Notes: generated by a model from the letters alone, not told the origin. A stretch of DNA of 40,388 bases from Actinomycetes bacterium (GCA_965662415.1 CBFIHB010000001.1:1-40388), one strand, 5' to 3'. Shown: positions 2,921-25,168, counted from the first letter of the stretch. Numbers and translations are program-made.

Positions 2921-3136
2921 TCAGGCGATCAGTTCGTAGCCGGCTTCATCTATCGCCGCACGCACGGCTTCGATATCGAGCTCGGCGTCGCTCGCGACGG
3001 TCACGGGCGAATCGCCGCCTTCGACTAGATCGATCTCGACGCTCGCAACACCGTCGATCTCGCTGATCTCCTCGGTAACTGCGTTCACGCAATGACCGCA
3101 GGTCATGCCGCGGACGGTGTAGGTGGTGCTGGTCAT
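2921..3136 (-). CDS. copZ: heavy-metal-associated copper chaperone
   Basis: 71 aa with the [13 protein letters not shown] motif, 7 nt upstream of copA. Confidence 0.9.
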
Positions 3137-3465: not shown

Positions 3466-4995
3466 CTAATCGCAGACGAGGTCGCTCGGGGGCACCTTGC
3501 CAGCCAGCAGATAGGCGTCGACGGCGTCGTCGACGCACGTCGAACCCTCCCGGTAGGCCGTGTGGTTGACAGCATCCCACGTGACCAGATGACCGTCCTC
3601 GAGCGATTGCGCCAGAGCCAACCCCCACGAGTGCGGCGTGGCCGAATCTCCCGTAGTGGAGACGACCAAGATCGGCGGCGCGCCTGCCGCTCTCGTGGGT
3701 GAATCGCTACCAGTCGATGCCGCTGGCCAGTCCGCACGCACGAGCAGACCCCACGCCAACGCCTCACCGAAGGTTGGGGCTTCCATCTGCCAATCGTCAA
3801 CCAGTTGCATCACGCGTGCTTCGTCCCCGTCAAAAGGCCGATCCGCGCAGGAGACGGCATAGAAGGAATCCGTTGAGTTGTCCAGGTAGCGGCCATCGAC
3901 CGAGCGGCTCGTGCGCTCGTCTACCAACGCGAGCAACGCGGTCCCATCGCGATTATCAACTGCTTGCTTGAGAGCATCACGGAGCCTTGGGTAGTCACCG
4001 TCGGGGAAGTACAGGAAGGAGATCACTGCGTAATTACCGAGCGACTCGGTGAGTTCCCGGCCATCAGCGGTAGGCAGGGGTTCGGTGTCCAGATCTGCCA
4101 GGAAGGCGCGCAGTTGCGTCGCAACATCTGCGGCGTCACCATCGAAAGGACACGAGCCCGATACGGCGCATTCCTGCGCAAAGTGCTCGAAGGCTGATTC
4201 GAATGCCACCGCCTGGCCGAAGGTGACCTCCTCTTGACTGAGGTGAGTCGGAAGCACACCGTCGAGAACCATGCGCCCCACCGTTTCGGGAAAGAGTTCG
4301 GCGTACGTTGCGCCGAGCGCCGTCCCGTAGGACTTTCCGATGTAGTTCAAGACGGGTTCGCCCAGCGCCGCGCGCGCGATGTCCATGTCGCGAGCCACGG
4401 ACACCGTGTCCATGTACTTCCACAGTTCGGAAGCCTCCGCCTCGCAGGCTTCAGCTACATAGGAGGAGTCTTCGACGATCTCTCGGCCTTCCTCGACAGT
4501 GTCTGGCGTTCCGTCAGCCGCGAAAATCGCATCGATCTCGGCATCGCTCAGGCATCGCACCGGTTCGCTCTTGCCGACGCCCCGCGGATCGACACCGACG
4601 ATGTCGAACGATTCACGGATCGCGGGTGAGACCACGATGTCCGCGGCCTTGGCGTAATCGAAGGCACTGCCTCCCGGGCCGCCGGGATTCAAGAAGACCG
4701 CTCCGATCGATTCCCCGGTCGCGGGGATTTTCGTGAGTGCGAGTTCGACGGTCTTCCCATCGGGTTCGTCGTAGTCCATCGGCACCTGAACCTTGGTGCA
4801 CTCCGCTCCCCCGCACTCTCGCCAATCGAGTTCTTGCCCATAGAACCCGGCGAGTGGATCAACCTCAGGAGACGGTGAGTCCTCAGTTGGCGTGGGTTCC
4901 GGTATCGGCGGAGGCACCGCCTGGGGGGTACTCGAGCACCCGGCGATGAGCAGGCCCGCGATGAGCAGGCCACCCAGAGATCTCCCAGCGTGCAT
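3466..4995 (-). CDS. secreted lipoprotein alpha/beta hydrolase, tripeptidyl-aminopeptidase (TAP)-like
   Basis: I trimmed the ORF track start (5181) to the ATG at 4995, which gives MHAGRSLGGLLIAGLLIAGC with an LIAGC lipobox. Nucleophile elbow GKSYG. The C-terminal part looks TAP-like. Confidence 0.8.
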   Translation of the reverse strand: MHAGRSLGGLLIAGLLIAGCSSTPQAVPPPIPEPTPTEDSPSPEVDPLAGFYGQELDWRECGGAECTKVQVPMDYDEPDGKTVELALTKIPATGESIGAVFLNPGGPGGSAFDYAKAADIVVSPAIRESFDIVGVDPRGVGKSEPVRCLSDAEIDAIFAADGTPDTVEEGREIVEDSSYVAEACEAEASELWKYMDTVSVARDMDIARAALGEPVLNYIGKSYGTALGATYAELFPETVGRMVLDGVLPTHLSQEEVTFGQAVAFESAFEHFAQECAVSGSCPFDGDAADVATQLRAFLADLDTEPLPTADGRELTESLGNYAVISFLYFPDGDYPRLRDALKQAVDNRDGTALLALVDERTSRSVDGRYLDNSTDSFYAVSCADRPFDGDEARVMQLVDDWQMEAPTFGEALAWGLLVRADWPAASTGSDSPTRAAGAPPILVVSTTGDSATPHSWGLALAQSLEDGHLVTWDAVNHTAYREGSTCVDDAVDAYLLAGKVPPSDLVCD

Positions 4996-5030
4996 GGCAC
5001 CCACGGTAACCCGGCACGTACCCTGATCTT

Positions 5031-5843
5031 GTGGGCCGAAGCAAGAAGGACTCCGCGGATCTCTCCGCGTCGATCGACGCTGCGGTGCAAAAAGGCCTAG
5101 ATCTCGTCGATGTCTTTCGTGGGGCGCCGGCTGGGCGCCGGGAACTCGAGCGCCAGGCAAGACAGAGTGCTCGACAAGCACGGCATGTCCAGCGAGCCTA
5201 CGCGGCGCGCAAGGCCCAGGCCCAGGCGCTGACTATCGGCGGCACGGCGGTCAGTGCGTCGACCGGGACGGTCGGGATCATCGACCTGCTCGCCACCAGC
5301 ACTGGTGATGTCGCCTGGTTCGCGGTCTCGGCCATCGGCGCGGTTGCCGCGGTCATCGGTGCGCGGGCCTGGCGTCGACTCCTGCCTCCGACCCCTGTCC
5401 CCACGATCGAGACGGCACCCGCCCTTCTTCGTCGGGGCGCAATCGGACACGAATCGGTCGCGCGGTACACAGCGGTGCGTGTACAAACCGTTCAGGTGAT
5501 TCGCGCGATCGAACCCCTGCATGCAGATGCAGCCACCGAGATCCGCTCCGCGGACTCCCAAGCCGCCCCCGCGCTGAACGCACTAGCCGAGCGGCTACGA
5601 GTGCTCGACGAAATGTCACGCAAGATGCCTGGAAGTGCCGCGGCCGATTCCGCCCGGGAGTCAGCGCGGGCGGTAACCGAACAACTCGATCGAGGCTCGG
5701 CCGGATACGACGTTCTCTTGGCAGCGGCTGCTCGGTTGCTCGCCGAACCGAGTCTGGCGCGTCCGGTGCCTGAAGTTCTCGAGCCGGCATCCTCGGCGTT
5801 AATCGCCTACGCGCACGGGCTACGTACCGCCTCGCAGATCTGA
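5031..5843 (+). CDS. hypothetical membrane protein (Ala/Arg-rich, one or two predicted TM segments)
   Basis: It is the longest ORF in the interval and is G/C-rich at third codon positions. It has a hydrophobic stretch (GIIDLLATSTGDVAWFAVSAIGAVAAVIGA) between helical Ala/Arg/Gln-rich regions. GTG start. I recognise no family. Confidence 0.5.
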   Translation: MGRSKKDSADLSASIDAAVQKGLDLVDVFRGAPAGRRELERQARQSARQARHVQRAYAARKAQAQALTIGGTAVSASTGTVGIIDLLATSTGDVAWFAVSAIGAVAAVIGARAWRRLLPPTPVPTIETAPALLRRGAIGHESVARYTAVRVQTVQVIRAIEPLHADAATEIRSADSQAAPALNALAERLRVLDEMSRKMPGSAAADSARESARAVTEQLDRGSAGYDVLLAAAARLLAEPSLARPVPEVLEPASSALIAYAHGLRTASQI

Positions 5844-5855
5844 GTCACTGCTTCT

Positions 5856-7055
5856 TCACGCCGTAGCTCGGACGGCCGGATCCTTCAACTGCACCATCGC
5901 GGCCTCGAGCACGGTGCGTGGGCTGCCGCCAGCGAAAAGCACGATGCGTTCGTGCTCCAAGGCCTCGAGCCGTCTGACCGTTTGCTCCTGTGTTGACGCA
6001 TCCGCGATCTGCTCCACCTGGGCGCGCATTTCCTCGTTGATCAAGTCGACGTCCGCCCCCACCTGAACGGTGAAGACGTCCCGGAACAAGCCGATCAGAT
6101 CCACGAGGGCACGGTCGACCTCATCGGTGATGAGGCGTCGTCGGCGTCGTTTATGTTCTTTGGCGATGATCTTGGCCTCATGATCGTGGGACCGTTTGAG
6201 CGCACCGGAAAGGCGCGTGACCCCCTCGGCGTAGTAACGCGATCTAAGTTCGGCGATCTCTTCGTCATCGAGGTGATCCGCTCGGGCCTCAGCGACCGCA
6301 CTAGCCGCATCGAACACCTCACCAGCTGCCGAGACGCAGGCCGCAAGGTCACGCAATCCCATCGGTGCACGCAGATACTGCTGGCGTCGTTCCCGGGTGC
6401 TGGGATCAGTTGCTAGCGCGCGAGCACGGCCGATATGTCCTTGCGAGGCACGCGCAGCGAAAGTGGCGATGGTTGCGTCGACTCCACACGATTCGACCAG
6501 CATCGCACTGATGTCCTCGGTGCTGGGGGTACGAAGACCCACCTGGCGGGTGCGCGAGGAGATCGTCGGCAGGACGTCTTCCACACTGGGTGCGCAAAGC
6601 ACCCAAACGGTGTGGGGAGTGGGTTCCTCGAGAGACTTCAGCAGGTGGTTCGCCGCGTGATCGTTGAGTCGGTCTGCGTCCTCGATCACGATCACTCGCC
6701 ACATCGCACTCATCGGAGATTGCGCTGCCATGGATATGAGTGGCTCTACGTGCTCGAGCAAGATGTCCGACCCCTCGGGGATCACCACGTGGACATCCGG
6801 GTGACCGCCGTGATCGGCGGTCCGACAAGCCTGGCAATGCCCGCAGCCAGATTCCTCGCAGACCAATGCCGAGGCAAAAGTGGTGGCCGCTCGGGACCGT
6901 CCCGATCCCGGTGGACCGGTGATCAGCCAGGCGTGAGACATCCCCGGTCCGGGTTCACCACGAGTGATCGCTTCGGCATCCCGGACAGCGGCAGTGAGGA
7001 CCTCGACCGCATCGTCTTGGCCGATCAACCCGGACCACAGCACCGGGATGCTCAT
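5856..7055 (-). CDS. holB: DNA polymerase III subunit delta-prime
   Basis: Degenerate P-loop GPPGSGRS, Zn module CEESGCGHCQAC, SRTR sensor-like motif. ATGA overlap with the tmk stop. Confidence 0.9.
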   Translation of the reverse strand: MSIPVLWSGLIGQDDAVEVLTAAVRDAEAITRGEPGPGMSHAWLITGPPGSGRSRAATTFASALVCEESGCGHCQACRTADHGGHPDVHVVIPEGSDILLEHVEPLISMAAQSPMSAMWRVIVIEDADRLNDHAANHLLKSLEEPTPHTVWVLCAPSVEDVLPTISSRTRQVGLRTPSTEDISAMLVESCGVDATIATFAARASQGHIGRARALATDPSTRERRQQYLRAPMGLRDLAACVSAAGEVFDAASAVAEARADHLDDEEIAELRSRYYAEGVTRLSGALKRSHDHEAKIIAKEHKRRRRRLITDEVDRALVDLIGLFRDVFTVQVGADVDLINEEMRAQVEQIADASTQEQTVRRLEALEHERIVLFAGGSPRTVLEAAMVQLKDPAVRATA

Positions 7056-20306: not shown

Positions 20307-20436
20307 GACTGCACTCTGCGCTCGTACAGACGCTGCGTGGAAGCCTCAACTTCACAGCTGTGGATGACGGTTATTGCCCTGTGGACGGCCATGTCGAAGT
20401 TGCCGGAGGTTCACTTTCGACAGGTACCGTGATGCC

Positions 20437-21219
20437 ATGCGCGGGGCGGCGTTCTTCGATCTGGATAAGACGATCCTGGCCAAATCCAGTTCGTTTGCCT
20501 TCGCTCGTCCCTTCTTCAAAGAAGGGCTCATCGGTCGCAGCGACGTTATCCGCAGTGCCTACGCGCAGTTCATGTTCCATGCCTCGGGTGCCGACCATGA
20601 TCAGATGGAGGCAATGCGGCAGTACATGTCCGATCTGGTCACCGGATGGGAAGTCGAGCGGGTGCAACAAATCGTGGCCGAGACCCTCGACCAGATCGTC
20701 GATCCGATGGTCTACGCCGAAGCCGTCGAGTTAATCGAAATGCATCGCGAGGCCGGCCTGGACATCGTGATCATCTCTTCGTCTGGCACAGATGTCGTCG
20801 AGCCGATCGGGGAGCGCTTGGGAGCTGATCTCGCGATCGGCACCCAAGTAGCTATCGAAGAGGGTCGGTACACCGGCGAGATCCTTTTCTACGCATACGG
20901 AGAAGGCAAGGCGGAGGCGATGCGAACTCTGGCGGCCGAGCGCGGCTCCGACCTCGCTGAATGCTTCGCATATTCCGATTCCCAAACGGATCTGCCAATG
21001 CTCGAGGCCGTCGGCTACCCGGTGGCCGTGAACCCCGATGCCGCGCTGCGCGCACTTGCAGCCGAACGTGACTGGCCGATCATCGACTTCGCCAAGCCCG
21101 TGGCAATGCGGCGAACCATCGAGCCCCGCCAAGCCGTCGCCGCTAGTGCCGGAGTCGCGCTAGGTGCCGTCGCCCTCGGCATTACCTGGTACGCCCGGCG
21201 CCGCAGCCTGCGCACCTAA
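20437..21219 (+). CDS. HAD-IB family hydrolase (SerB-like) with C-terminal membrane anchor
   Basis: Motif I FFDLDKTIL, IISSSG, AYSDSQTDLPML. C-terminal hydrophobic tail AVAASAGVALGAVALGITWY followed by ARRRSLRT. I chose the ATG at 20437 over the track start at 20374. Confidence 0.85.
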   Translation: MRGAAFFDLDKTILAKSSSFAFARPFFKEGLIGRSDVIRSAYAQFMFHASGADHDQMEAMRQYMSDLVTGWEVERVQQIVAETLDQIVDPMVYAEAVELIEMHREAGLDIVIISSSGTDVVEPIGERLGADLAIGTQVAIEEGRYTGEILFYAYGEGKAEAMRTLAAERGSDLAECFAYSDSQTDLPMLEAVGYPVAVNPDAALRALAAERDWPIIDFAKPVAMRRTIEPRQAVAASAGVALGAVALGITWYARRRSLRT

Positions 21220-21220
21220 C
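21196..21220 (+). repeat. left copy of perfect 25-bp direct repeat CGGCGCCGCAGCCTGCGCACCTAAC
   Basis: Identical 25-mer at 22337-22361. This copy encodes the last codons and the stop of the HAD gene (RRRSLRT*). Confidence 0.95.
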
Positions 21221-21230
21221 ATTTCCGCTG

Positions 21231-21285
21231 AAACCTGCAGCAAGCGTCACAAACTTTCGAATTTGCGACGCTACCTGCAGGTCTC
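21231..21285. repeat. 55-nt palindromic hairpin element, copy A
   Basis: AAACCTGCAGCAAGCGTCACAAACTTTCGAATTTGCGACGCTACCTGCAGGTCTC. The arms ACCTGCAG..GCGTCACAAA and TTTGCGACGC..CTGCAGGT pair into a stem of about 20 bp. It matches copy B at 48 of 55 positions by hand alignment and abuts the stop of the DUF559 gene. Confidence 0.9.
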
Positions 21286-22198
21286 AGTGCATCGACGCGT
21301 GTAGTCGCCGCGCGAGCGAAGCCGAGCGCAGGTCTCCCATGCCCCAACGAACCACGCGATAGCCGGCCTCACGGATCGCGTCCTCCCGCCGCTTCTCCGC
21401 ATACAGCGATTCGCGATCGACGTACTTCAAGCGGCCATCTGCCTCGCCGACCAGCAAGAAGTCATCCCAGAGGAAGTCCACCCGCGCAATAAACGCGCCC
21501 AGGAGTGAGCGCAGTTCCACCTGCATCCGTGGGAGCGGGATGCCCCGCTCAACGAAATAGGCGAATGACGCCGACTCCAACACACTTTCGCGAACGCCAT
21601 CCACAAGTTCTGCCGCACGCAGAAGGCGTCGACACCCGCGCCGCCCGCGCCACCGGTCCCTTTGAGCTATCACCGCGGCCACGTCGAACTTCGATAAGCG
21701 CGCCCCCGCATCACCGCAGACCAGGGACTGCGCCAGCGACCCGTATCGGGTGATGTCGATCCAACTTCGCAACGCGGAGGCGACGGGCACGCGCCCCTCA
21801 TCCACTTCACCCTCGAGGAATGCGCGTACTCGAAAATCGACCCCACCGCGGGACCCCGACCAACGCCCGGGGGGAACAGCGAGTTGCACGTTCGTAGGCA
21901 CCGAAGCCACTGGCACCCCGTGCATCAGCGCGGCGCTGGTGTCGCAGACAACAGTGCCGGGAGTGCGAATCGCCGCCGCCACCGCGCGATGGATGTGCTC
22001 GACACGTGCCCGAGCATGCGGGTCAAGGTCGTCGTACGTGCTCTCTCCAGCCGGCAGATAGGCGCCGTGTCCGATCCGTAACCAGGCACCCGATCGCACT
22101 CGGTGTCGAACCTGATCACCCGACAGCCCAGCCTCACGTGCATCAGTGATGAGGGCCAAACTCGGGAGCCGGGGATCGGGTTCTGCACGTCGTGGCAT
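21284..22198 (-). CDS. AbiEi_4-like wHTH / DUF559 (Vsr-like PD-(D/E)xK fold) domain protein
   Basis: The N-terminus LITDAREAGLSGDQVRHRVRSGAWLRIGHGAY is typical of AbiEi_4-type wHTH domains. The C-terminus VDFLWDDFLLVGEADGRLKY...REDAIREAGYRVVRW matches the DUF559 core. I chose the ATG at 22198; the track start at 22279 lies inside hairpin copy B. Confidence 0.72.
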   Translation of the reverse strand: MPRRAEPDPRLPSLALITDAREAGLSGDQVRHRVRSGAWLRIGHGAYLPAGESTYDDLDPHARARVEHIHRAVAAAIRTPGTVVCDTSAALMHGVPVASVPTNVQLAVPPGRWSGSRGGVDFRVRAFLEGEVDEGRVPVASALRSWIDITRYGSLAQSLVCGDAGARLSKFDVAAVIAQRDRWRGRRGCRRLLRAAELVDGVRESVLESASFAYFVERGIPLPRMQVELRSLLGAFIARVDFLWDDFLLVGEADGRLKYVDRESLYAEKRREDAIREAGYRVVRWGMGDLRSASLARRLHASMH

Positions 22199-22257
22199 GT
22201 CCCCGAGCCTGCGTCGCCGAGCGAGCTGAGAGCAACCGACCATCCACAGGCGCACCC

Positions 22258-22312
22258 AAACCTGCAGCGAGCGTCGCAAGAATCCGAATTTGTGACGCTA
22301 CCTGCAGGTCTC
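22258..22312. repeat. 55-nt palindromic hairpin element, copy B
   Basis: AAACCTGCAGCGAGCGTCGCAAGAATCCGAATTTGTGACGCTACCTGCAGGTCTC, in the same orientation as copy A. It lies between the stop of the 22331-23119 gene and the DUF559 start, so it can also act as that gene's terminator hairpin. Confidence 0.9.
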
Positions 22313-22330
22313 GGCGTTATCGGCCAGCGG

Positions 22331-23119
22331 TTAGAGCGGCGCCGCAGCCTGCGCACCTAACCCGATCGCCGAACCGAACCAGCCGAAGTAGGCGGCCATG
22401 TCTCCTGTCGCATAGGCACGGATCGCTTTGACGTAAGCGGGCCTGCCTAATTGCAGCATGCCTGTCTCCGGGACCGAGAACAAGGACGGATCCACACCTC
22501 GTGCTGCGAGGACCAAACGAACAGCAGCGCGCCCGAGTAGTCCCGATCCCCAGGAGAACGGACGCGCACTGAGCAGCTCGGCATGAACGATGCCGGCAAC
22601 GGCGAGCGCCGGAGCCTGTTGACCTTCGGCCACCAAGTCCGCCAGCAGCGCCATCCTGCCGGCCGCAGCGGGCGCGCTCGGCGCATCGATCGCCACCCGC
22701 AGTGGATCATCGGGAACCTCGACCTCGGTCCGCGGACGTCCGAGTTGGTCTTCAGCTACATGTCCATGGGCGGCCACCGCATGCAACCGGGCGAGGACCT
22801 GCAGCGGAGCTTTCCCCCAGGTTTCGACAAGGGCCGGGACCTCGGCCGTGATGGCCTGGGCGGATCCGAGCACCCGGCCCATGGGCGAGTCTTCGACAAC
22901 CACCACGTCAGCACCATCGATAACCGCGGAATCCCGTGACCCACGTTGCCTCGAGCCACTCGTGAATTCCACGGCCTCCGCGCGTACGTCACGCCGCCAC
23001 AGCAATGCATCGATCTGCCCACGCGCTTGATCCAAGTCCTCTCGGATGCCCTCGATGGCCATCAACCGATCCACTGCCTGGGCTAGCGCGTCCGTCACGG
23101 CCTGCACGCTAGTGGGCAA
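22331..23119 (-). CDS. conserved hypothetical protein with degenerate Fic-like motif
   Basis: VHAELLSARPFSWGSGLLGRAAVRLVL aligns by eye to the Fic core HPFx[DE]GNGRxxR, but with Arg in place of the catalytic His. Start uncertain: TTG at 23119 or GTG at 23107. Its position corresponds to Rv3662c (from memory). Confidence 0.6.
   Translation of the reverse strand: MPTSVQAVTDALAQAVDRLMAIEGIREDLDQARGQIDALLWRRDVRAEAVEFTSGSRQRGSRDSAVIDGADVVVVEDSPMGRVLGSAQAITAEVPALVETWGKAPLQVLARLHAVAAHGHVAEDQLGRPRTEVEVPDDPLRVAIDAPSAPAAAGRMALLADLVAEGQQAPALAVAGIVHAELLSARPFSWGSGLLGRAAVRLVLAARGVDPSLFSVPETGMLQLGRPAYVKAIRAYATGDMAAYFGWFGSAIGLGAQAAAPL
22337..22361 (+). repeat. right copy of perfect 25-bp direct repeat
   Basis: Identical to 21196-21220. 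Here it lies antisense within the last 9 codons of the minus-strand gene 22331-23119. A plus-strand relic reading frame ends RRRSLRT* at 22360. Confidence 0.95.
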
Positions 23120-23200
23120 TCCCGGTCACTTCCATCGACGAATCCGTCGCGTCAGGAGCGTTGATTTGGTTAGGTGGAACCACTCGAGGAAAGGACCGCC

Positions 23201-25168
<1,968 letters not shown>

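Follow-up and report, generated by a model that had tools for sequence, protein, structure and literature searches.

A hairpin-bracketed single-gene cassette at a HAD/Fic-like junction of actinobacteria as a candidate unit of gain, loss and exchange

We propose, with moderate confidence, that positions 21221-22336 of the window (the whole 40,388-nt stretch of DNA from an Actinomycetes bacterium, GCA_965662415.1) form one discrete cassette, complete in itself and with a single gene, which is gained, lost and exchanged as a whole, as a hairpin-end or homing-like selfish element would be. The cassette lies between a HAD-IB hydrolase gene and a Fic-like gene, and its parts are as follows, in positions of the window.

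20374-21219: HAD-IB hydrolase open reading frame (ORF), C-terminus ...ARRRSLRT*
21196-21220, plus strand: left 25-bp repeat, comprising the final 7 codons of the HAD-IB hydrolase gene and its stop
21221-22361, equivalently 21196-22336: indel unit of 1141 bp, comprising the cassette and a single repeat copy, from the empty-allele alignment
21231-21285: downstream hairpin, a 55-nt palindromic element that overlaps the cassette gene at its stop codon and lies 10 nt from the left repeat
21284-22198, minus strand: cassette gene, with its ATG at 22198 and 304 codons followed by a stop
22232-22250, minus strand: conserved upstream motif, in the space that separates the start codon from the upstream hairpin, CCTGTGGATGGTCGGTTGC on the gene strand
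22258-22312: upstream hairpin, the second 55-nt palindromic element, with the Fic-like stop codon on one side and the cassette gene on the other
22337-22361, plus strand: right 25-bp repeat, antisense to Fic-like codons ...LGAQAAAP
22331-23119, minus strand: Fic-like ORF, C-terminus ...GLGAQAAAPL*

Repeat scans, shuffles and folding confirmed the order direct repeat (DR), hairpin, gene, hairpin, DR that a preliminary description of the window had reported, together with its pair of 25-mers and its pair of 55-nt elements, which are in direct orientation and identical at 48 of 55 positions (87%). The 25-mer, CGGCGCCGCAGCCTGCGCACCTAAC, occurs as two direct copies against a chance expectation of 0.00 in shuffles, and no third copy was found in the whole window with up to 3 mismatches allowed. 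The right copy falls in the final ~10 codons of the Fic-like gene and also terminates a relic plus-strand ORF (...RRRSLRT*), and the last codon and stop of the Fic-like gene (22331-22336) come from the cassette side. The Fic-like label itself comes from sub-threshold matches (Pfam Fic at 18 bits, cutoff 24; PADLOC SoFic at 1.4e-4). The cassette had been described as wedged between a convergent gene pair; HAD and the Fic-like gene are indeed convergent, but the Fic-like and cassette genes stand in tandem on one strand, with HAD alone converging on the two.

Empty alleles of this locus were found. Metagenome contigs that are 99.3-99.8% identical to the window (L054-L056; loci are labelled L throughout) miss exactly 1141 bp. 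L054 aligns to 26619-22337 and 21220-19977 at 99.5-99.8% identity, with the 25-mer included in both segments, and L055 and L056 gave the same outcome. In these alleles HAD and the Fic-like gene converge with a 60-nt overlap, a single 25-mer is retained and both ORFs are intact, the Fic-like ORF continuing via ...AAAPGVPGNAEGDGT* into HAD antisense; hairpin and cassette gene are absent. The preliminary description had anticipated an empty site with the two genes directly convergent, one 25-mer and at most one hairpin, and these contigs supply one that has no hairpin. It had also noted extra similarity upstream of both repeat copies (CTCGGCATTACC / CTCGGCGTTATC), which we rejected as part of the duplication, the breakpoints relative to the empty allele being exactly the 25-mer. 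The right-hand 12-mer of that similarity begins in the outer flank of the hairpin (GGTCTCGGCG), a sequence that also adjoins hairpin copies at other loci. Two further pairs come from other lineages. In one, L124/L126 (occupied) and L033, the flanks are 96.8% identical, the edge of the indel is the hairpin itself, and L033 has one hairpin at the HAD/Fic-like junction. In the other, L061 and L062, with flanks ~91% identical, 1232 nt stand against 10 nt. Dozens of more distant relatives lack the cassette and have HAD and Fic-like genes that are directly convergent or overlapping. The best reading of these sequences is that the cassette-free overlap would be the ancestral, still-circulating allele. 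Each indel taken by itself could be a gain or a loss, neither direction being proven, and host recombination between repeats, by loss, would be enough for every empty allele.

The hairpins that delimit the cassette belong to a larger family. A degenerate palindrome pattern matches only these two sites in the window, where 0 are expected, and both copies fold into long hairpins (DNA dG -17.5 to -22.9 kcal/mol, z -2.7 to -6.8), with values of -19.8 and -22.9 kcal/mol on the two strands for the downstream hairpin and -18.8 and -17.5 kcal/mol for the upstream one. The pair brackets the cassette gene in the window, L001, L002, L003, L010, L051, L060, L061, L101, L124 and L127. As the preliminary description had expected, further copies are dispersed in the genomes, at ~4-9 per MAG when exact-pattern copies in fragmentary MAGs are counted, and most of them sit at other gene ends, away from the cassette gene. 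The family has a fixed frame of 50-56 nt in which the CCTGCA/GTC/GAC/TGCAGG positions are invariant, and it shows strong covariation (89.5% of cells paired; 109 double-sided changes vs 49 in shuffles). Copies sit 8-20 nt from stop codons, and when both neighbours of a solo hairpin were called, these were convergent in 18 of 28 cases and divergent in 0. The hairpins have no T-run and for that reason fail a simple scan for intrinsic terminators. Several cassette-less junctions hold a solo hairpin, which could be a native terminator instead of a scar.

These positions bear on an alternative that the preliminary description had itself offered, in which a bidirectional terminator was duplicated locally and a gene was captured later. 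Family hairpins do normally occupy convergent junctions, the L033 junction holds one of them, and at L024 an 85-nt direct duplication of a gene end plus hairpin surrounds an unrelated, inserted secreted-protein gene, so that bracketing needs no cassette protein in cis. At the HAD/Fic-like locus, however, the alternative fails, since no hairpin is present in the conspecific empty allele. That allele has the 60-nt overlap and no spacer, and L062 has a gap of 13 nt, so the hairpins come and go with the gene. The order DR-hairpin...hairpin-DR is also not that of one unit in tandem, and the hairpin-gene-hairpin design is repeated at unrelated loci; we consider terminator duplication very improbable.

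In its traits the hairpin family resembles the tuberculosis Rho-independent terminator motif (TRIT), a set of conserved palindromic hairpins at gene termini that is restricted to Mycobacterium, largely bidirectional and present in 147 copies (Gardner et al. 2011, PMC3152330). The likeness lies in multi-copy hairpins of conserved sequence at gene termini, compensatory changes and a bias toward convergent genes. The hairpins studied here probably differ in sequence, and they do differ in host lineage (MAGs labelled Candidatus Nanopelagicales or Actinomycetes) and in number (~4-9 exact-pattern copies per MAG vs 147); nor is there any report of TRITs that flank one particular gene family or travel with a cassette. 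Because TRIT is reported in Mycobacterium only (PMC3152330) and the likeness is one of traits, we treat the family as a TRIT analogue and not as a member.

The preliminary description had likened the layout to that of REP elements and RAYT genes. These genes, the REP-associated tyrosine transposases, and their REP elements are said to have been treated by Nunvar in 2010 and by Bertels and Rainey in 2011. Part of the comparison stands, in that a single-copy gene is flanked by a dispersed palindromic repeat and gene clades go with differing palindromes. It is a mere analogy, however, because there is no HUH/Y1 transposase: Pfam found neither an HUH/Y1 nor any other transposase domain in the cassette protein or its family, and the protein has instead a wHTH/AbiEi plus PD-(D/E)xK-like fold. 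Copy numbers appear low in the fragmentary MAGs, and gene and hairpins together vary in presence among conspecific strains and are swapped as a unit. A related alternative is that the gene encodes a domesticated, RAYT-like factor, that is, a single-copy and mostly vertical host gene acting in trans on the hairpin family in its spread, maintenance or termination/processing. The hairpins are dispersed and two copies flank the gene in nearly every lineage having it, different members of the protein family go with different palindromes, and the authors of the TRIT study proposed an unknown factor that binds conserved hairpins (PMC3152330). We nevertheless find such a factor improbable, given that the gene is missing from conspecific strains and that the MAG JAIOXK retains four hairpin copies with the gene absent at the HAD/Fic-like site. 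Exact-pattern copies number ~4-9 per MAG rather than hundreds, the HUH/Y1 domain is lacking, and the hairpin variants of a single genome form a heterogeneous set that does not cleanly track the cassette protein.

Palindromic brackets are also found around relatives of the cassette gene, as the preliminary description had supposed for other family members. Nine of the 12 members examined, at no fewer than 5 unrelated sites, are bracketed by near-identical palindromes of their own, with paired-palindrome scores of 17-52 vs a control maximum of 12; 41 neighbouring control genes had no such palindrome pairs, and paired flanks were absent in three of the 12 members (L141, L142, L144). These hairpin-bracketed relatives suggest that gene cassettes with hairpin ends make up a large class in actinobacteria that has gone unrecognised. 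With empty alleles, dispersed hairpins and flanked relatives all found, the overall interpretation of an inserted unit with a duplicated target is supported, and none of the outcomes that the preliminary description had named as refuting it was observed.

Comparisons between lineages indicate that the cassette is exchanged whole. Between L010 and CAYPSE, a pair of close hosts, the flanks have 85-98% nucleotide identity and the whole cassette 50-70%, with the transitions at the repeat positions. Protein identities are similarly incongruent, at 96 for HAD and 91 for the Fic-like protein vs 63 for the cassette protein in one case, and 80 for the Fic-like protein vs 51 for the cassette protein in a second. 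No co-conversion tracts were visible in the flanks, and no cassette copies were found on viral contigs, there being no known vector. Between the window and L001, cassette and flanks co-diverge uniformly, and inheritance is therefore mostly vertical. The repeat is perfect and host-specific, with 25 nt in the window, 23 in L001, 23 in L003 and 26 in L010; in L060 it is identical at 50 of 51 nt, it has decayed in CAYPSE and L051, and none was detected above background in L002, L039, L061, L077, L120, L124, L127 and L134. These states, as read from the sequences, would fit resets of the repeat at different times. In L010 the Fic-side repeat reproduces the HAD end of its own host without a mismatch, and the inner boundary of the cassette is common to several host clades (window, L001, L003, L010).

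This single inner boundary would be expected of an integrase- or integron-type element, in which the 25-mer serves as an att core or attC-like site for a recombinase encoded elsewhere, and so would the Campbell-like design in which a new Fic-like 3' end is supplied from the cassette side. Integron cassettes, too, are single promoter-proximal genes delimited by imperfect palindromes folding as hairpins (attC), and a solo hairpin could be a landing site for a circle of gene plus one hairpin (L033 vs L124). Yet no integrase, transposase or other recombinase is encoded in the cassette, as had been stated from the outset, or within ~10 kb of it at the syntenic loci; there is no IntI, attI or array, and each cassette has its own operator-like region. 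The repeat varies from none detected to 51 nt, many lineages having the cassette without a repeat, and the hairpin consensus has no integron R/L core boxes (GTTRRRY/RYYYAAC), the GTTAGGT at the repeat edge being the HAD stop codon in antisense. An element of this type seems to us scarcely credible. Repeat lengths of none detected, 23-26 and 51 nt are likewise unlike those of a fixed-stagger transposase. Identity as a RAYT, an integron cassette or a classical transposon was rejected (no HUH/Y1, IntI or transposase; variable repeat length).

The cassette protein carries a wHTH of AbiEi type at the N-terminus, followed by an AbiEi-like middle domain and, at the C-terminus, a putative DUF559/Vsr-like domain of PD-(D/E)xK type (VDF...GEADGRLKY), the last an assignment supported only at the level of family or profile. 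Searches by HMM, profile and fold point to AbiEi plus a DUF559/Vsr-like domain for the family; in the protein itself, AbiEi_4 (PF13338) scored 24.8 bits vs a cutoff of 25 and DUF559 had no Pfam match. At E<=10 Pfam returned AbiEi_4 and a spurious SinI match and nothing else, and NCBIfam gave no match of any kind. Among 34 homologues, 23 matched AbiEi_4 and 11 matched DUF559 (PF04480), and the family-wide Pfam matches are AbiEi_4, DUF559, MTES_1575 and AbiEi_1. Compared by profile, the family matches the DUF559 structure 3HRL in positions 240-304 (E=0.003), where Lys takes the place of the usual DUF559 His that 3HRL has in the alignment, and D241, E252, D254 and K258 of the C-terminal motif are invariant in the family alignment. 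The predicted fold is confident (pLDDT 92.4); Foldseek relates it to AbiEi (6Y8Q, E=2e-5) and Rv2827c (1ZEL, E=1e-3), and, more weakly, its C-terminal domain to the 3R3P catalytic domain (target TM 0.64-0.67, E ~0.15). PADLOC classes the protein as an AbiEi match at 1e-6. With the AbiEi antitoxins of type IV AbiE systems (6Y8Q; Rv2827c, 1ZEL) it shares the N-terminal wHTH and the N-terminal/middle architecture; it differs in having a DUF559-like nuclease-fold C-terminus in place of an AbiEii partner, since no AbiEii nucleotidyltransferase toxin gene was found in the window or at any syntenic locus, where the cassette has one gene and its neighbours are HAD and Fic-like. With free-standing homing endonuclease genes (I-Bth0305I, Vsr-like EDxHD, 3R3P) the cassette shares a small, autonomous nuclease-fold gene between conserved genes, presence or absence at one fixed site, intact empty alleles, and a patchy, incongruent phylogeny. 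Unlike the cassette, homing makes no target duplications and needs no terminal hairpins; the fold match is also weak, and co-conversion tracts were not seen.

The AbiEi likeness admits a further explanation, in which the cassette gene is a passive accessory gene for defence or regulation that varies between strains and lies at a hotspot of recombination. Its hairpins would be insulators or terminators, and host recombination, slippage and horizontal transfer between relatives would move it, the protein having no share in mobility. Both PADLOC and Foldseek group the protein with AbiEi antitoxins, and in other lineages unrelated inserts (ADH plus an MFS transporter, a P450, a NYN-like protein, an ABC permease) occupy the HAD/Fic-like junction. 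The solo hairpins have terminator positions, the unrelated gene at L024 is likewise bracketed, cassette GC content equals that of the flanks, and the window and L001 co-diverge uniformly. We regard a passive gene as possible, if only tentatively, as it leaves unexplained the paired, locus-specific palindromes at 5 or more unrelated loci against 41 controls without them, the exchange breakpoints at the cassette ends and not inside the well-conserved flanking genes, and the match of the L010 Fic-side repeat to its host's own HAD end. The missing AbiEii partner and the failure of the hairpins, lacking a T-run, in the terminator scan also speak against it.

On our preferred reading, of a cassette that moves as a unit, the design in gene orientation would be a hairpin, an operator-like motif, the 304-aa wHTH/DUF559-like nuclease-fold gene and a second hairpin, the hairpins being part of a lineage-wide family of gene-end palindromes (TRIT/REP-like). 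Insertion would occur inside the 60-nt HAD/Fic-like overlap and duplicate 25 bp of it, so that HAD and the Fic-like gene both keep complete ends, the cassette side contributing a new last codon and stop to the latter. Loss may occur when the 25-bp repeats recombine or replication slips from one to the other, a step that the near-identical palindromes would probably assist by pairing, or when the two hairpins recombine and leave one solo hairpin; in exchange between lineages the repeats would mark the breakpoints. Transposase-independent precise excision of Tn10/Tn5 occurs by slippage between short target duplications and is stimulated by terminal inverted repeats. The cassette resembles it in having direct repeats outside mutually complementary palindromic ends and an exact empty site with one repeat kept, and differs in having no transposase and in a repeat that consists of 25 bp of overlapping coding sequence vs a fixed 9-bp target duplication; by this analogy, Tn10/Tn5 excision may serve as a model for the loss step only. 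We infer that the cassette protein is the driver of mobility, its nuclease-fold domain perhaps acting on the empty junction or on a hairpin/cruciform and so promoting insertion. If the protein drives insertion, the cassette would be a homing-like or hairpin-end-directed selfish element and not a housekeeping gene.

The conserved motif upstream of the cassette gene (core CCTGTGGAT..GTTGC; short form CTGTGGAT) is probably an operator or promoter of that gene, judging from its sequence and placement. Its partly palindromic form would fit autoregulation, and the cassette protein may bind it and autoregulate as AbiEi does. The motif keeps its relative position in L001, L002/L101, L003, L060, L061, L120, L124 and L127, is palindromic in L127, and appears in reverse-complement form, TTATCCACAG, upstream of a distant member of the family in L143.

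The preliminary description had placed a pair of 25-mers and a pair of 55-nt palindromes around a single gene, and scans of the window bore out both the coordinates and the 48/55 identity of the palindromes. The 25-mer CGGCGCCGCAGCCTGCGCACCTAAC is found exactly twice in the 40,388-bp window; no third match is present there even with three mismatches, and none is expected from shuffled sequence. The two 55-nt elements lie just inside the repeats in direct orientation, are the only matches to the degenerate palindrome pattern in a scan of the window, and both fold into long hairpins (DNA dG -17.5 to -22.9 kcal/mol, z -2.7 to -6.8). The arrangement is as follows.

21196-21220: left 25-mer, at the end of the HAD-IB hydrolase (HAD) ORF, ...ARRRSLRT*
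21231-21285: 55-nt hairpin element, first copy
22198 down to the stop codon at 21284-21286, minus strand: cassette gene, 304 aa, the sole gene between the repeats
22258-22312: 55-nt hairpin element, second copy
22337-22361: right 25-mer, antisense to ...LGAQAAAP near the end of the 262-aa Fic-like ORF

The HAD ORF matches PF12710 (5e-34) and TIGR01490 (1e-58), and the similarity of the 262-aa ORF to Fic is sub-threshold only. The description of a convergent pair enclosing the cassette holds for HAD, which converges on the cassette gene, but not for the Fic-like gene, which lies on the cassette gene's own strand. Foreign composition was rejected for the cassette, whose GC content equals that of its flanks.

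The unit in the window is a discrete, hairpin-ended, single-gene cassette that is polymorphic between near-identical strains. The predicted empty site was found in a survey of metagenome loci anchored on the Fic-like neighbour, where three contigs (L054-L056), 99.3-99.8% identical to the window across 4-7 kb, lack precisely window positions 21221-22361 (1141 bp). These contigs have a single 25-mer, no hairpin, and a 60-nt overlap of HAD and the Fic-like gene. Both ORFs of the empty allele are intact: HAD ends in ...RRRSLRT*, and the Fic-like protein continues to ...AAAPGVPGNAEGDGT, as compared with ...AAAPL in the occupied allele. Since these breakpoints are exact, the additional 12-mer similarity upstream of both 25-mers, to which the preliminary description had also pointed, is rejected as a longer duplication. 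Two further occupied/empty pairs were recovered. Occupied loci L124/L126 and empty locus L033 have flanks 96.8% identical and differ by an indel of about 1 kb bounded by the hairpin, of which one allele has two copies and the other has one; in the pair L061 and L062, with flanks about 91% identical, L061 carries 1232 nt at the point where L062 carries 10 nt.

In relatives that are occupied, the same slot is filled by homologues 40-91% identical, in the gene order Acs, Fic-like gene, cassette gene, convergent HAD and Rv3660c-like gene, with a hairpin on either side of the cassette gene in nearly all syntenic cases. Dozens of more distant relatives have no cassette gene, and their HAD and Fic-like genes abut, overlap by 4 nt (CTAG) or are separated by a short gap, from which we infer that the cassette-free convergent arrangement is ancestral. 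In many distant relatives (L080-L093, L100) the overlap is exactly 4 nt, the palindromic CTAG serving as both stop codons.

The Fic-like/HAD junction is a general insertion hotspot. Unrelated inserts occupy it in L091, L096, L105-L107, L113, L117, L119, L129 and L131, some of these lineages being low-GC; judged by eye from their sequences, these inserts are a P450-like gene, an NYN/LabA-like protein, an ABC permease and a zinc-ADH-like gene, the last accompanied in some cases by an MFS transporter. The presence of unrelated inserts at the same junction in other lineages favours the main rival explanation, namely that the cassette gene is a passive accessory AbiEi-like gene residing in a recombination hotspot, as does the match in GC content between cassette and flanks. 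Individual junctions show further complexity. In L097 the 3' end of the Fic-like gene (about 2990-3080) carries about four tandem 18-nt units that hold its stop codon (GTCGTCCCCTGAGTTGGC), the downstream hairpin is the only one of the two that occurs, and between cassette and HAD lies a further insert with a long minus-strand ORF (4080-5133). In L026 an additional 241-aa ORF (5887-6612) separates the upstream hairpin from a cassette gene that has diverged strongly (44-51% identity with others), and no second exact hairpin was found in that locus.

The cassette is exchanged as a unit; it was inserted where two genes overlap, and part of the overlap was duplicated. The close hosts L010 and CAYPSE (a MAG represented by L007 and L036) are 96% identical in HAD and 91% in the Fic-like protein, as against 63% in the cassette protein; at the DNA level both flanks are 85-98% identical and the whole cassette, hairpins included, is 50-70% identical, with the transitions in identity coinciding with the two repeat positions. 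Likewise, L002 and L026 are 80% identical in the Fic-like protein and 51% in the cassette. By comparison, cassette and flanks co-diverge between the window and L001 and between L003 and L051. Inheritance is therefore vertical for the most part, the unit being replaced as a whole only now and then.

The direct repeat exists because the target is the overlap of two genes, part of which was duplicated; both genes therefore keep complete ends, the cassette side providing the Fic-like gene with its last codon and stop. In lineages whose two genes lack an overlap (L061/L062 and clade A), no repeat above background was detected. The repeat is perfect and lineage-specific in the window (25 nt), L001 (23), L003 (23) and L010 (26), and matches at 50/51 positions in L060, in which it seems to span all of the predicted gene overlap. 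It has decayed in CAYPSE (16/19) and L051, and is at background in L002/L101, L026, L039, L061, L077, L120, L124, L127 and L134. The Fic-side copy in L010 is identical to the host's own HAD end; CAYPSE has the same HAD end as L010, and its Fic-like tail differs at 5/23 positions. Such variation suggests that the repeat was reset at different times, through re-insertion or conversion from the HAD copy, and speaks against steady constraint. Universal constraint through concerted evolution was rejected given the decayed repeats and the many occupied loci without one, and a fresh fixed-stagger target duplication in each lineage was rejected given that lengths vary (none detected, 23-26 and 51 nt) and that the inner boundary is common to several clades. 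In L010 the downstream hairpin and the right direct repeat have a G-rich tract between them (GGGAGGGGGGGGGGAGGG; about 2140-2165). The C-terminal coding end of HAD, ...ACCTGGTACGC (TWYA; window 21180-21192, and in all loci), opens with ACCTG like the hairpin arms (ACCTGCAG), which may be chance or may be tied to target choice.

Most cassettes at the Fic-like/HAD site carry a conserved motif, CCTGTGGA(T/C)(A/G)G…GTT(T)GC, after the upstream hairpin and ahead of the start codon. The window copy is:

22232-22250, minus strand: motif reading CCTGTGGATGGTCGGTTGC (short form CCTGTGGATGG…GTTGC)

The motif is palindromic in L127 (CCTGTGGACAGGCGTTTGCCTGTCCACAGG), and a distant family member, L143, carries TTATCCACAG upstream of its gene. 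It is probably an AbiEi-style operator, and resembles a DnaA-box core (TGTGGATAA). A promoter/terminator scan returned nothing at the hairpins or upstream of the cassette gene.

The cassette hairpins belong to a TRIT/REP-like family. The preliminary description had raised the prospect of further copies in the genome. When 185,579 species-representative genomes were scanned with the shared frame ACCTGCA-N6-GTC-N16-20-GAC-N6-TGCAGGT, 50 stretches matched; almost all belong to about a dozen actinobacterial MAGs, each of which has about 4-9 exact copies spread over different contigs. L002 has a third copy between an antiporter gene and Acs. Among 54 distinct copies, 89.5% of stem cells are paired, compared with 30-40% when the partner columns are slid; double-sided changes number 109 (49 +/- 8 in shuffles), and none of 500 shuffles reached the covariation score. 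Solo copies usually lie 8-20 nt from stop codons, and of the 28 for which both neighbours were called, 18 have convergent neighbours and none has divergent ones. Because solo copies are dispersed at other gene ends, the hairpins are not exclusive to the cassette gene. Nearest to these hairpins among published elements is the mycobacterial TRIT family of conserved-sequence palindromes at gene termini, which comprises 147 mostly bidirectional hairpins (Gardner et al. 2011, PMC3152330); an Rfam search with the hairpin gave no matching family, only chance sub-threshold matches.

In about 440 kb of Fic-like-anchored loci, 17 of 19 relaxed-pattern hairpin matches are immediate neighbours of the cassette gene, and for two of the three occupied/empty pairs, hairpins and gene are present or absent together. 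The stricter proposition that hairpins never occur at cassette-less junctions fails, since folding of the gaps reveals solo family members in L033, L065 and L067. Folded gaps at the cassette-less junctions of L098 (3492-3565; dG -68 kcal/mol, z -8.1) and L068 (4196-4342) contain other, very strong solo palindromes of unrelated sequence, which may represent either native terminators or scars left by cassettes of another type. We also rejected genome-wide tracking of hairpin variant with cassette protein variant, as the 4-6-nt variable box differs among the copies of one genome and gives no clean signal. A second kind of hairpin-bracketed insertion, one without an AbiEi/DUF559 gene, is seen by ahcY in MAG JAIOXK (L024), where a direct duplication of about 85 nt (815-895 and 1685-1765) brackets a minus-strand ORF. 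Each copy consists of the upstream gene's last 4 codons, its stop codon and a hairpin of the same family; the ORF, 118 aa as listed, encodes an apparently secreted protein unrelated to the AbiEi/DUF559 gene. That an unrelated gene is bracketed similarly again favours a passive passenger.

Paired palindromes are a recurrent trait of the protein family, being carried by members at five or more unrelated loci. The preliminary description had asked whether other DUF559 paralogs are flanked likewise; other members have pairs of their own at unrelated sites, with scores above the control maximum.

Best local alignment of upstream against downstream flank of family members (control, 41 neighbouring genes: maximum 12, mean 9.2)
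Window, Fic-like/HAD: 37.5
L134, Fic-like/HAD, different palindrome: 34
L125, Fic-like/HAD: 52.5
L077, Fic-like/HAD: 25.5
L139, Pseudonocardiaceae, ArsR-type regulator side (tRNA-synthetase side by synteny with L141): 20
L135, Rhodococcus, dnaK operon/dynamin-like genes: 17
L143, upstream of BipA, 53-nt hairpin, 49/53 identical: 43
L146, upstream of BipA, different hairpin, inverted: 24
L145, DUF3107/ferritin-like, 64-nt hairpin: 41.5

Three members at various sites (L141, L142 and L144) gave no paired-flank signal (8.5, 11.5 and 10).

The assignment of the protein to AbiEi_4 and to DUF559/Vsr is supported at the level of homologues and family profile. For the single protein a Pfam search gave AbiEi_4 just below the cutoff (24.8 bits; cutoff 25) and no DUF559, and an NCBIfam search no match. 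Among 34 homologues, 23 match AbiEi_4, 11 match DUF559 and 3 match REase_MTES_1575; the family profile matches DUF559 structure 3HRL (E=0.003) over the C-terminal 65 residues, and D241, E252, D254 and K258 are invariant within VDF...GEADGRLKY. In a confident AlphaFold model (pLDDT 92.4), Foldseek matches AbiEi antitoxin 6Y8Q (E=2e-5) and Rv2827c (E=1e-3), and the C-terminal domain resembles the Vsr-like homing endonuclease I-Bth0305I (target TM 0.64-0.67, E about 0.15). PADLOC calls AbiEi only. The family is very large: clustered at 50% identity, it amounts to 40,388 clusters for E<=1e-3 and to 5,500 for E<=1e-30. Such proteins are abundant in actinobacteria, mycobacteria and rhodococci included, under the conflicting annotations 'very-short-patch-repair endonuclease', 'AbiEi antitoxin' and hypothetical protein. 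A PD-(D/E)xK survey places Vsr/DUF559 among 'house-keeping genes' that 'do not transfer laterally', and a full-text literature search returned no paper tying DUF559 to AbiEi or to flanking palindromes.

The cassette is best seen as a variant of repeat-bounded mobile or accessory cassettes, or of REP-associated genes, with a low but real probability of being a separate class of element. It lacks the HUH domain that would make it a RAYT, and the IntI and core sites that would make it an integron cassette (a GTTRRRY at the repeat edge is the HAD stop codon in antisense and is not conserved, reading CTAGG in L001, L003 and L010). With no transposase and a duplication of varying length, it is not a classical transposon either, and with no AbiEii partner gene it is not a complete AbiE toxin-antitoxin pair. 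A viral vector was rejected, since hairpin pattern and protein family are both absent from IMG/VR contigs and a PHROG search gave no matches; having no known vector is likewise in keeping with a passive gene in a hotspot.

Tn10 and Tn5 undergo transposase-independent precise excision, and the geometry of that process is that of the cassette's repeats and hairpins. Loss of the cassette probably proceeds by recombination or slippage between repeats or between hairpins. The cassette itself may promote gain through its wHTH/nuclease-fold protein, by a route that resembles homing or is directed by the hairpins. An excised circle is predicted to have the junction …hairpin-TTTCAGCGGAAAT-25-mer-CTCTAACCGCTGG…hairpin. 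We think it rather unlikely that the family of about 300-aa AbiEi_4-wHTH/DUF559-like proteins is an unrecognised class of autonomous single-gene mobile cassettes, each with its own palindrome pair and self-acting protein, and a source of TRIT/REP-like hairpins at actinobacterial gene ends. Were it so, the wHTH and PD-(D/E)xK-fold protein would recognise and cut hairpins, cruciforms or the empty junction, insertion and excision would take place at convergent gene junctions, and solo hairpins would be scars or landing pads.

One member of a vaguely defined family is now precisely delimited as a presence/absence cassette, which raises the testable hypothesis of a hairpin-ended selfish or defence cassette without a classical recombinase. 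The family is also linked to a second question, the origin and binding factor of conserved-sequence, TRIT-like hairpins at gene termini. The near-identical occupied and empty alleles, with their defined 25-bp junction, are concrete substrates for work on binding, cleavage and excision. Should the protein prove to act on its own hairpins, it would open a new enzymatic way of mobilising DNA; otherwise the locus would still be a clean natural case of insertion into overlapping convergent genes tolerated through partial duplication of the overlap.

Some annotations met along the way merit comment. ARAGORN calls a 95-nt tRNA-Asp on the minus strand at window 23870-23964, inside the acetyl-CoA synthetase ORF (23174..25168), which is almost certainly a false positive. 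The CAYPSE assembly breaks within the cassette gene, its contig ends L007 and L036 overlapping by exactly 55 nt, as would fit strain heterogeneity or a second cassette copy in the sample. MAGs CAYPSE and CAZQRR (loci L007, L010, L014, L016, L029, L031, L034-L036, L044 and L046) are titled 'uncultured Rubrivirga sp.' (Bacteroidota/Rhodothermia) yet have actinobacterial HAD/Fic-like synteny and the same hairpin family, and these labels look wrong.
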